Shown in pieces: positions 3,113 to 3,245 of a stretch of 64,000 nt of DNA (its first letter is position 1; the number at the start of each line of letters is the position of its first letter). Under the pieces are notes generated by a model that was given only the letters and a program-made list of their open reading frames with translations, ran no database searches and was not told the origin of the DNA. The position numbers and the translations under genes were made by a program. The DNA comes from an uncultured Candidatus Saccharibacteria bacterium. GTDB taxonomy: Bacteria; Patescibacteriota; Minisyncoccia; Phycocordibacterales; UBA9973. Where the stretch lies: positions 86,061 to 150,060 of the forward strand of contig CAYZYV010000002.1 of assembly GCA_964482735.1 (NCBI GenBank), given 5' to 3'.

Positions 3113-3245
3113 ACATTTTATATCCAAAGCGGAGGGTACAGGATTTGGTCACGCATAATTTTCTGCTGAAAATTTGCGCTACCCCGACTCGCGCCGCCGC
3201 GCTCCGTCTTTCAAATCCAGTCCTCGCGATACTCTGTATCGCTTG
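3113..3245 (-). repeat. tRNA-flanking structured repeat (copy A) between tRNA-Ser and tRNA-Val, ending in a 19-nt copy of the tRNA-Ser 3' end
   Basis: Read on the minus strand: hairpin GCGATACAGAGTATCGC, then GAAAGACGGAGCGCGGCGGCGCGAGTCGGGGTAGCGCAAATTTTCAGCAGAAAATTATGCGTGACC, then CAAATCCTGTACCCTCCGC. The last segment is identical to the tRNA-Ser T-arm/acceptor 3' strand. The core is near-identical to copy C at 56.8 kb. Confidence 0.5.

Follow-up and report, generated by a model that had tools for sequence, protein, structure and literature searches.

Gene-less structured cassettes carrying copies of the tRNA 3' end follow tRNA genes in Patescibacteria

tRNA genes and cassettes of the window

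The 64,000-nt stretch of contig CAYZYV010000002.1 (GenBank assembly GCA_964482735.1) analysed here, referred to as the window, is a chromosome segment of 34% GC from a Parcubacteria-type patescibacterium. Among the genes on it are FtsZ, TrxB, gyrase A, SecA, DnaE, 16S rRNA and RNase P RNA, and its nearest relatives among the loci fetched for comparison (designated by L numbers) are labelled Paceibacteria and Nomurabacteria. Five tRNA genes were predicted in the window with ARAGORN. Four of them carry behind them one or more members of a family of small cassettes, five of which (A, B, C1, C2 and D) lie within the 64 kb; the tRNA-Asn gene is followed by a terminator only and has no cassette. The cassettes are non-coding, measure about 110-250 nt and are assembled from four parts: a hairpin that is often a terminator, X' (the end of the upstream tRNA, copied in inverted orientation), a structured core and X (a direct copy of this tRNA end). 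From 5' to 3', the core comprises the closing helix P1, GAAA, helix P2a (GAC/GUC), a bulged G, tandem G.A pairs, the variable hairpin P2b, GG and P3, a long variable hairpin with the base GGUCGCG/YGUGACC that includes an invariant G.U pair. Scores are those of R1, a covariance model generated from 20 short-type copies, and predicted folds are minimum free energy (MFE) structures. The following features were annotated at the four tRNA loci:

3245..3332, minus strand: tRNA-Ser(CGA); its last 19 nt (3245-3263) are repeated as X (ARAGORN, Rfam, repeat search)
3226..3244, minus strand: spacer hairpin of cassette A, GCGATAC-AGA-GTATCGC, with no T-tract after it and so not terminator-like (sequence, fold)
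3213..3225, minus strand: X' of cassette A, GAGGACTGGATTT, in which the tRNA-Ser T-loop, T-stem and acceptor 3' strand are copied imperfectly and in inverted orientation
3147..3212, minus strand: core of cassette A, GAAAGACGGAG...GTGACC, a three-way junction scoring 101 bits with R1
3129..3146, minus strand: direct repeat X of cassette A, an exact copy of tRNA-Ser positions 57-74 (19 nt with C3147)
3036..3109, minus strand: tRNA-Val(GAC), 19 nt downstream of the cassette A repeat and probably in the same transcription unit (ARAGORN, Rfam)
2859..3035, minus strand: cassette B, with a second core type, behind tRNA-Val (sequence, MFE fold, homologues)
3008-3033, 2997-3007, 2977-2996 and 2965-2974, minus strand: weak terminator-like hairpin, acceptor part of X', side hairpin and T part of X' of cassette B
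2874-2964, minus strand: core of cassette B, GAAGACC..GAG..GGUGUAC..UGUAA hairpin..GUGUACUCAC hairpin
2859-2873, minus strand: degenerate copy of the tRNA-Val end in cassette B (12/14)
2819..2854, minus strand: strong intrinsic terminator that ends the unit of tRNA-Ser, cassette A, tRNA-Val and cassette B
9223..9295, minus strand: tRNA-Glu(TTC) (ARAGORN, Rfam)
9001..9222, minus strand: cassette C1, with a terminator hairpin whose stem is extended to CAC/GTG, a diverged core (next entry) and an extension that bears a GUGUACUCGC hairpin
9074-9178, minus strand: diverged core of C1, with P2a AGC/GCU and the CAGCAG loop in P2
8986..9000, minus strand: direct repeat behind C1, TCTCTGTAGGGTCAC, 15/15 identical to the tRNA-Glu end
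8840..8985, minus strand: cassette C2, with a terminator hairpin (8944-8971) and a diverged core (8846-8934)
56671..56744, plus strand: tRNA-Lys(CTT) (ARAGORN, Rfam)
56745..56810, plus strand: left arm of cassette D, two hairpins followed by GAATC (GAAUC)
56811..56876, plus strand: core of cassette D, with the architecture of A and an R1 match of 95 bits
56877..56894, plus strand: direct repeat of cassette D, GATTCCCTCACGGGGCAC, 16/18 identical to the tRNA-Lys end of this strain
56895..56946, plus strand: terminator hairpin, then GTGCCCCGTGGAG, an inverted copy of the tRNA-Lys 3' end

The core sequence that a first-pass annotation of this DNA had quoted behind tRNA-Ser is present on the minus strand, from GAAAGACGGAG to GTGACC at 3212 to 3147. 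Cassette A is ordered as a short hairpin, GAGGACUGGAUUU, the 66-nt core and AAAUCCUGUACCCUCCGC; counting the C in front of it, this last stretch reproduces 19 nt of the tRNA-Ser 3' end. As the annotation had also stated, this copy is exact: the window contains CAAATCCTGTACCCTCCGC at two places only, once as the end of the tRNA-Ser gene (3245-3263) and once immediately behind the core (3129-3147), and 100 shuffles yielded 0 matches. Within the core, the GAAA junction, P2a (GAC/GUC), the tandem G.A internal loop, the P2b hairpin and the GG junction are followed by the P3 hairpin with its CAGCAG loop and the GUGACC end. X' forms the 5' strand of P1 and pairs with 3129-3146 in the MFE fold, and the folding energy of the cassette with its flanks corresponds to z = -3.1 against shuffles. 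Consensus scans identified one promoter-like site upstream of tRNA-Ser and predicted no terminator between tRNA-Ser, cassette A and tRNA-Val. Because of this single upstream site and the lack of a terminator before tRNA-Val, with a strong one after cassette B, cassette A is probably part of a tRNA precursor and co-transcribed with tRNA-Ser and tRNA-Val, as judged from sequence signals.

The remaining regions that had been listed as one family (2853-3036, 8840-9223 and 56744-56943) differ in their relationship to cassette A. Cassette D is a true sibling (z = -5.2 against shuffles), and the arrangement of core and tRNA-end copy described behind tRNA-Lys is confirmed, except that its repeat matches in 16/18 positions here and is 18/18 identical to the tRNA-Lys end only in strains L132, L146 and L149. 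The variant consists of CCCTC in some strains, the window included, and CCTCC (as in the tRNA) in others. The region at 8840-9223 resolves into two diverged copies: C1 is matched by R1 at 9071-9181 (18.4 bits, E 7e-4; fold z = -4.6), and C2, with the core GAAGACGGAAG..GAGUCCGGGG..GUGGCC and no tRNA-end copy after it, at 8831-8946 (18 bits, E 1e-3; fold z = -5.2). Cassette B shares the frame, including the degenerate copy of the tRNA-Val end, but had wrongly been counted as having the same core; it is not detected by R1, which was built on short-type copies. Its MFE fold is tRNA-shaped (z = -6.9), and both substitutions of its X relative to tRNA-Val keep wobble pairing with X'. The B-type core follows the plan GAAG-stem-GAG-hairpin-stem-GGUGUAC, a UGUAA-loop hairpin and a GYG-UAYU-CRC hairpin, and has 13 homologues in a matching frame within the loci fetched for the A-type. 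A third core type occurs in L038 and composite forms in L034, L093 and L102. The constant feature is the frame, which several structured inserts share.

The core is a covarying single-strand fold

Two alignments were used to evaluate the core: a 20-sequence seed, aligned with MAFFT and given its structure by hand, and a wider alignment of 120 copies fitted to the model. In the seed, P2b and P3 are 98.8% and 96.9% paired, with changes on both sides in 3/4 and 8/16 pairs, respectively. Among the 120 copies, P2a, P2b and P3 are paired at 98%, 98% and 94%, and two-sided changes affect 3/3, 4/4 and 15/16 of their pairs. Overall, 87% of the cells of this alignment are paired, compared to 34-41% with slid partners, and 0/500 shuffles reach the observed values. 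Even copies that were found by the model only show covarying P2a variants (GAC/GUC, GCC/GGC, GGC/GCC and AGC/GCU). P2 and P3 together contain 197 G.U pairs versus 15 A.C mismatches, and the fold therefore belongs to the tRNA-sense strand. Two recurrent terminal loops, C-AGCA-G and C-GACG-G flanked by tandem G.A pairs, can be swapped between P2 and P3. The compensatory changes from which a conserved RNA structure had been proposed thus hold on larger alignments, and the core contains a single-strand fold, most likely of RNA, that is under purifying selection.

P1 behaves differently from P2 and P3. Its inner 8 bp show no wobble preference in an ungapped count (56 G.U versus 58 A.C), and the mild excess in the model-fitted alignment (143 G.U versus 86 A.C) comes from an alignment that is biased towards pairing. 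Selection on P1 at the RNA level is therefore unsupported.

Direct and inverted copies of the tRNA end frame the core

X usually starts directly after GUGACC, is about 18 nt long and copies the upstream tRNA from T-loop position 57 to C74. At least 16 of the 18 positions are identical to the tRNA end in 35/71 cases, X is decayed in about half, and behind genes that encode CCA the copy usually still ends at C74. The spacing between tRNA and core has its mode at 64 nt. The first-pass annotation had missed the inverted copy that precedes the core. This X' is the reverse complement of the last ~18 nt of the tRNA; its T-part adjoins the core and forms P1, and its acceptor part adjoins the preceding hairpin, which is usually an intrinsic-terminator-like stem. 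The tRNA end, the hairpin and X' can build perfect palindromes, whose arms reach as much as 26 nt (L084, L094, L111), and in these same loci, where the downstream X has decayed, X' is perfectly complementary to the tRNA's own end. Pairing of X' extends through the discriminator and C74, leaving no free acceptor end. Only 12/71 copies show a good acceptor part in X' (at least 9/10), and the D-type is almost entirely devoid of X'. At positions of G.U pairs in the tRNA T-stem, X' carries A in 18 cases versus 7. Because it follows X at these positions, X' is a true reverse complement of X. Its interpretation as a copy of the tRNA's own 5' strands, i.e. a collapsed tRNA duplicate, was ruled out by the same letters.

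A large subfamily has its X' split, precisely where the acceptor and T parts meet, by a conserved hairpin of 7 bp (AAG...CUUGCG), whose loop is often CUGC. These cassettes are predicted to fold into a tRNA shape, which the first-pass annotation had also missed: an acceptor-like stem and a side arm are joined to a T-like stem on which the core sits as a cap (z = -6.9 to -7.8). This geometry introduces the principal rival to an insertion element: a host-functional, tRNA-like RNA in a mini-tRNA frame in which the core would replace the T-loop. RNase P, RNase Z and the CCA-adding enzyme would cut such an RNA from the precursor, and its predicted role would lie in tRNA maturation, quality control or another process. 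The strong single-strand covariation of the core, the three-armed folds with the side hairpin exactly where the tRNA body would attach, the predicted co-transcription of cassette A in a tRNA operon and the retained wobble pairing of both X substitutions in cassette B are all consistent with this explanation. Other properties of the frame argue against it, namely the scarcity of a good acceptor part in X', the decay of X in about half of the copies, the lack of a wobble bias in the inner P1 that sets it apart from P2 and P3, the plain reverse complementarity of X' and X through the discriminator and C74, which would leave no free acceptor end, and the near absence of X' from the D-type. On balance, a host RNA of this kind is considered doubtful as the full explanation.

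The features of P1 that fit an RNA poorly are those expected of a folded single-strand DNA recombination site. Here, the stem of X', core and X would mimic the duplex of the tRNA-gene 3' end, and a host tyrosine recombinase would exchange one strand with the tRNA gene, thereby inserting a circular cassette. X' is the exact reverse complement of X even at the tRNA G.U positions, P1 tolerates G.T no more than A.C, as for a mimic of duplex DNA, and X' still matches the tRNA's own end in L084, L094 and L111, where X has decayed. The structure is also strand-specific, and cassette arrays are separated by the repeat. The scarcity of X' in the D-type argues against this model too. In addition, each cassette would have to carry an X that matches its tRNA, yet four different X are found with the D-type (see below), one recombinase would have to accept the ends of 18 different tRNAs, and no integron-type or Xer-type enzyme is linked to the cassettes in a survey of neighbouring genes, which is a weak test. 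Such a site is thus an unlikely account of the family.

A C|R step is shared by both junctions of the frame, which read GGUUC|GA within the tRNA and GUGACC|GA behind the core. Combined with the three-way junction, its invariant junction nucleotides and the invariant G.U pair, this identity could indicate a small ribozyme or viroid-like unit, in which a putative cut at the C|G junction 5' of X, while X is paired to X', would release unit-length, rod-like RNAs (X - hairpin - X' - core) able to circularise. These unit RNAs would use all observed complementarities. However, no known ribozyme family in Rfam matches in window positions 2780-3400 even at E = 10, cleavage at 56|57 would destroy the tRNA, and a self-cleaving unit is regarded as hardly probable.

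Distribution and linkage to tRNA genes

To search contigs representing one genome per species, an exact 20-base pattern was used that consists of GAAAGACGGAG, 6-30 nt and GAGUCGGGG. It occurs in at least 120 stretches and, among the matches listed, all but five belong to Patescibacteria (more than 100 genomes), including Paceibacterota, Nomura-, Kaiser-, Yonath-, Lloyd-, Taylor-, Wolfe- and Adlerbacteria, Minisyncoccia and metagenome-assembled genomes labelled as Saccharibacteria. In the five other matches the rest of the motif is absent, and they look like chance. The covariance model R1 retrieved 120 copies in 100 loci, often two to three per 8 kb. Conservation across many lineages of Parcubacteria would also be expected of a host RNA.

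Linkage was counted for the 97 model copies with enough upstream sequence, with a limit of 400 nt for a tRNA gene on the same strand. Such a gene precedes 75/97 copies (77%), comprising 18 tRNA identities, so that the tRNA-linked family suspected from the window is large; conversely, 84/141 tRNAs in the fetched loci are followed by a copy. Unlinked copies include those behind tRNAs missed by ARAGORN, members of arrays, an IS3 insertion and a few orphans. One missed gene is a tRNA-Asn in L090 (5570-6430, minus strand) whose anticodon loop is split by a group I intron (Rfam Intron_gpI, 76 bits) and which has an A-type cassette with a perfect 19-nt repeat behind it. In L018 (1100-3910) and L010, an open reading frame (ORF) of an IS3-family transposase lies between tRNA-Ser and its cassette, and some apparent orphan cassettes are therefore secondary separations.

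Rfam 15 at its gathering threshold annotates only rRNA, RNase P RNA, LOOT and tRNAs over the whole window, no family covers the core in window positions 2780-3400 at E <= 10, and no cassette is covered in 18 related loci (134 kb). A full-text search of the published literature returned no description of the cassette family. The family is thus real, widespread and, as the first-pass annotation had supposed, undescribed.

The distribution also bears on the explanation that had been offered for the repeats, according to which they are attL/attR cores of integrase recombination. In this case, the repeats would be classical attachment (att) scars of phage, integrative and conjugative element or island integrases, and the units decayed remnants resembling cis-mobilizable elements (CIMEs). 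Such integration has a textbook signature, namely direct repeats that span the T-loop to tRNA 3' end and elements in tandem with partial tRNAs between them (10.1101/2020.12.28.424599; PMC6323972), and the window itself has an apparent serine-recombinase island beside tRNA-Asn. Yet this tRNA-Asn has neither cassette nor repeat, and remnants would be heterogeneous, unlike the covarying core and the near-constant layout with its 64-nt mode. The core pattern has 0 matches in 2.9 million viral contigs, no integrase fragments are found near the cassettes, and copies follow 18 tRNA identities. The attL/attR assignment is therefore not established and fits poorly on four counts: the local repeat at four tRNA species in the D-type, the 18 identities, the lack of a linked recombinase and the lack of viral copies. 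Integrase scars are accordingly very unlikely.

Gain, loss and stacking of whole units

Comparison of related strains revealed differences that coincide with the borders of the cassettes. Strain L136 belongs to the window's own species (98.8% identical over 3.3 kb downstream of the tRNA-Glu locus) and is without the whole 237-nt C1 unit: tRNA-Glu(CTC) is joined directly to the repeat, and homology to the window starts exactly at 9000. C1 is present in L134 and L135. In L144, L145 and L148, an extra C1-like cassette replaces the terminator after the D repeat. L051 contains a 152-nt extra cassette relative to its orthologue L110 (88-92% identical), inserted exactly after GUGACC of the first cassette and flanked by ACCAAGTCTTC[A/T]AATTTA, an 18-nt duplicate of the local, already degenerate X. 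Cassette arrays occur in L008, L036, L038, L046, L079 and L125, and many contigs of the window's species end inside cassettes. Among syntenic FtsZ-TrxB-tRNA-Val loci, L020 and L030 are empty, L046 has two cassettes of the A-type, and L069, like the window, has one of the B-type. Empty orthologous tRNA sites in some lineages and other core types elsewhere speak against a host RNA, for which copy-number variation would have to reflect ordinary duplication and loss.

One cassette type, the D-type, occurs at several tRNA species. Its left arm and core are near-identical behind tRNA-Lys(CTT), tRNA-Arg(TCT), tRNA-Glu(CTC) and tRNA-Leu(TAA) in 18 (meta)genomic loci, and each copy has the local tRNA's own repeat (17-18/18); tandem D-type units also exist. 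Between genomes, D is 88-94% identical, with flanking obg genes 71% identical.

An additional type of difference is found inside the cassettes. Between L051 (7461-7637) and L110 (4534-4708), P2b differs as a block (CGCGACGGCGCG vs GGCTGTCGAGCC) between identical flanks, and compensatory swaps of A/T runs distinguish the two P3 stems. These block differences suggest patch-wise gene conversion between cassette copies.

Insertion at the tRNA 3' end as the best reading

The best reading of these observations, to which we assign an even chance, is that the cassettes are non-autonomous insertion units that use the tRNA 3' end as an attachment or duplication site and are co-transcribed with the tRNA. 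It is preferred because the single-strand fold, the tRNA linkage, the direct and inverted copies, the gain and loss of units, the arrays and the occurrence of one cassette type at several tRNAs, all of which are directly observed, fit together in this way. Insertion, loss and stacking of whole units would occur at the X boundaries. A newly occupied site would gain the X of its local tRNA, copied from the target at insertion and not carried by the element as an att sequence, as suggested by the four repeats of the D-type and by the L051 insert, which is flanked by a duplicate of a local X that had already degenerated. The responsible enzyme would act in trans and recognise the geometry of T-arm and acceptor, and the cassettes would ride in tRNA precursor transcripts. 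X' may have arisen by palindrome extension around the terminator hairpin or, alternatively, as part of a folded single-strand attachment site like integron attC or CTX-phi attP, which would explain the avoidance of wobble pairs in P1.

Several points weigh against insertion. We know of no familiar class of bacterial transposons with an 18-19-bp target duplication, and a simple target duplication fails to explain the tRNA-specific, inverted X'. Most polymorphisms could be deletions or ectopic recombination between repeats and homologous cores instead of insertions; the L136 junction involves the paralogous tRNA-Glu(CTC) and may itself have arisen by recombination. The core is deeply conserved, as is the side hairpin located exactly at the acceptor/T-stem junction, and this conservation points to an RNA function at the level of the host. 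Finally, Pfam was run on all sizeable ORFs of the window and on 150 random neighbour ORFs (loci L001-L120), and the 25 most frequent families of these 150 ORFs include no recombinase, transposase or reverse transcriptase. The window ORFs beside cassettes are housekeeping genes, no reverse transcriptase adjoins any copy, and the sole recombinase of the window is the serine recombinase at the cassette-less tRNA-Asn. A function in the host and propagation by insertion are not mutually exclusive.

A bolder version of the insertion model has a lower but still substantial chance. In this version, a gene-less fold, either RNA or single-strand DNA, is propagated by machinery that reads T-arm/acceptor geometry and would constitute a new, tRNA-end-duplicating class of mobile element. 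Around the insert, its mechanism would place direct and often also inverted copies of the 18-19 nt that end the target tRNA, possibly through tRNA-processing enzymes or an RNA intermediate, and would be without counterpart among known transposons, integrons and integrative elements.

Comparison with known systems

tRNA-targeting integrative elements leave 3' repeats that begin in the T-loop, preserve an intact tRNA, accumulate in tandems separated by partial tRNAs and are polymorphic between strains (10.1101/2020.12.28.424599; PMC6323972; PMC5704250). The cassettes appear to work most like these elements and their gene-less derivatives (tycheposons, CIMEs): they are flanked by direct repeats of the tRNA 3' end, accrete in tandem and are present or absent between strains. 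In contrast to integrative elements and CIMEs, they are 110-250 nt in size, gene-less and equipped with a covarying core and a tRNA-specific inverted copy, no integrase or remnant is linked to them, viral relatives were not found, and their att core is neither constant nor specific for one tRNA, as illustrated by the four repeats of the D-type. The earlier suggestion of miniature integrative elements is thus retained for stackable units that are bounded by a tRNA-end repeat and vary between strains; the classical integrase route is not established. Because of the missing integrase, the inconstant att, the many tRNAs, the lack of viral relatives and the lack of attC boxes, the cassettes fail the defining tests of integrative elements and integrons, and the family is filed with tRNA-anchored insertion elements.

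What defines integron attC and CTX-phi attP as sites is not their sequence but a single-strand fold: an inverse core is paired with the core, and the centre that they enclose is branched and variable. The cassettes resemble them in their arrays and in a strand-specific, imperfect stem with a variable centre that mimics the target duplex. They differ from integrons in the junction (ACC|GAWTCC, not G|TTRRRY), the absence of attC boxes and of a link to IntI or Xer, and a cargo that is essentially the fold alone. Unlike attC and CTX-phi sites, the stem is the 3' end of the neighbouring tRNA and not R/L boxes or dif, and the repeats are 18-19 nt long.

Short, multi-copy, non-coding, hairpin-rich, co-transcribed and patchy sequences are also known as miniature inverted-repeat transposable elements (MITEs), Correia, BOX, RUP and ERIC elements, Rickettsia palindromic elements and palindrome-associated transposable elements (PATEs) derived from IS200/IS605. 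The cassettes are likewise multi-copy, non-coding and polymorphic between strains, but their termini X' and X change with the local tRNA, which rules out strict MITE identity; in addition, the repeat measures 15-19 nt and the target is one tRNA position. Compared to structured miniature repeats, the core stands out through RNA-type covariation and a strong wobble bias.

In tRNA-like structures, such as the tRNA-like domain of tmRNA, mascRNA, viral tRNA-like structures and bacterial YrlA, an acceptor-like stem is placed on a T-like stem with a reduced body. The cassettes similarly adjoin tRNA transcripts and stack acceptor- and T-like stems, which suggests that tRNA enzymes might process them. 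A substrate of RNase P and RNase Z would be expected to stack a 7-bp acceptor stem on a 5-bp T stem with a T-loop, leaving the discriminator and the 3' tail free. In the cassettes, unlike these RNAs, a junction domain of 65-100 nt takes the place of the T-loop, the stems make up a helix of some 16-19 bp, and pairing includes the discriminator and C74; no tRNA-like RNA family of Rfam matches at the cassettes.

A single-locus parallel is E. coli tyrT, with 178-bp repeats that carry the last 19 nt of tRNA-Tyr. As in the cassettes, the units are located downstream of a tRNA and each ends in a tRNA-end copy of ~19 nt. Unlike the cassettes, the tyrT repeats are confined to one locus in one species and have not spread over many tRNAs and genomes, and we are aware of no conserved structured core in them.

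Several further candidates were rejected. Retron non-coding RNA is superficially similar in its stem with two hairpins, but no reverse transcriptase is found next to any copy. Hammerhead, hairpin, twister-sister, the k-turn consensus and retron msr-msd were compared with the core by eye and none fits, nor did a by-eye comparison with TIGR arrays (PMC12045711). Group I introns interrupt tRNAs of Patescibacteria in the anticodon loop (PMC13011429); here, the upstream tRNAs are complete and no Intron_gpI match is found at the cassettes, the sole true group I intron observed being that in the tRNA-Asn of L090.

Other features of the window and neighbouring loci

A 356-aa ORF (3465-4535, minus strand) without a Pfam match is located directly upstream of the tRNA-Ser promoter. 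Among the 150 neighbour ORFs, RluA-type pseudouridine synthase (5) and MiaA/IPP transferase (4) are frequent Pfam families, which may reflect simple conserved synteny of tRNAs with tRNA-modification genes.

The putative integrated island (30500-44630) abuts the 3' end of tRNA-Asn. Its large serine recombinase gene (43008-44570, plus strand) has a 13-nt overlap with tRNA-Asn, and its cargo comprises a Prim-Pol/AAA_25 protein (40901-42712), a type I restriction-modification system (34197-39646), a regulator with helix-turn-helix and M78 domains (32651-33712) and several ORFs without a Pfam match. A second copy of the tRNA-Asn end that would mark the island boundary was sought in the window and not found. 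At the far edge of the putative island lies a LOOT RNA (RF03000; 30553-30679, plus strand), an RNA of unknown function, and a second LOOT copy is present in L008 (3852-3985), an unrelated Patescibacteria locus that had been fetched for its cassette.

Within rnhB (RNase HII ORF, 45496-46185), a palindromic in-frame segment (45763-45843, minus strand) gives a weak match to the cassette model. It contains a 15-bp inverted repeat (CCGGAGATTCTTTTT...AAAAAGAATCTCCGG) with T-arm-like ends and a GAAAGG start, encodes FERSSDEGGKRARPFQKESPA and is reminiscent of Rickettsia palindromic elements. Its occurrence is patchy: some RNase HII orthologues have it, and others, with 93% identity in the remaining sequence (P0002/L150), do not. 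Because the differences of the empty allele (L150) extend beyond the segment, no clean insertion boundary could be drawn.

Upstream of the real tRNA-Glu, truncated tRNA-Glu 5' halves (GGCCCTATCGTCTAAC...) are found at 9300-9400 (minus strand). Elsewhere (L134/L135, 1500-1900; L136, 1000-1400), such halves contain one to three tandem 39-nt palindromes (CCCGCCTGCAAAAGCTATGCTTTAAGCATTGCGGGCAGG) and other hairpin inserts. These inserts are a second kind of small insertion at tRNA loci.

Significance

Patescibacteria have tiny genomes with few recognised mobile elements, yet most of their sampled tRNA genes trail at least one cassette. If the cassettes are mobile, they would represent an unrecognised way to target and duplicate tRNA 3' ends, as well as a source of structural variation between strains and of assembly breaks in metagenomes of the candidate phyla radiation. 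If they are host RNAs, they would form an abundant, lineage-specific class of tRNA-shaped non-coding RNAs derived from tRNA precursors; the RNA biology of these organisms has hardly been explored. In either case, the family is large, cleanly structured, located outside Rfam and directly convertible into covariance models.

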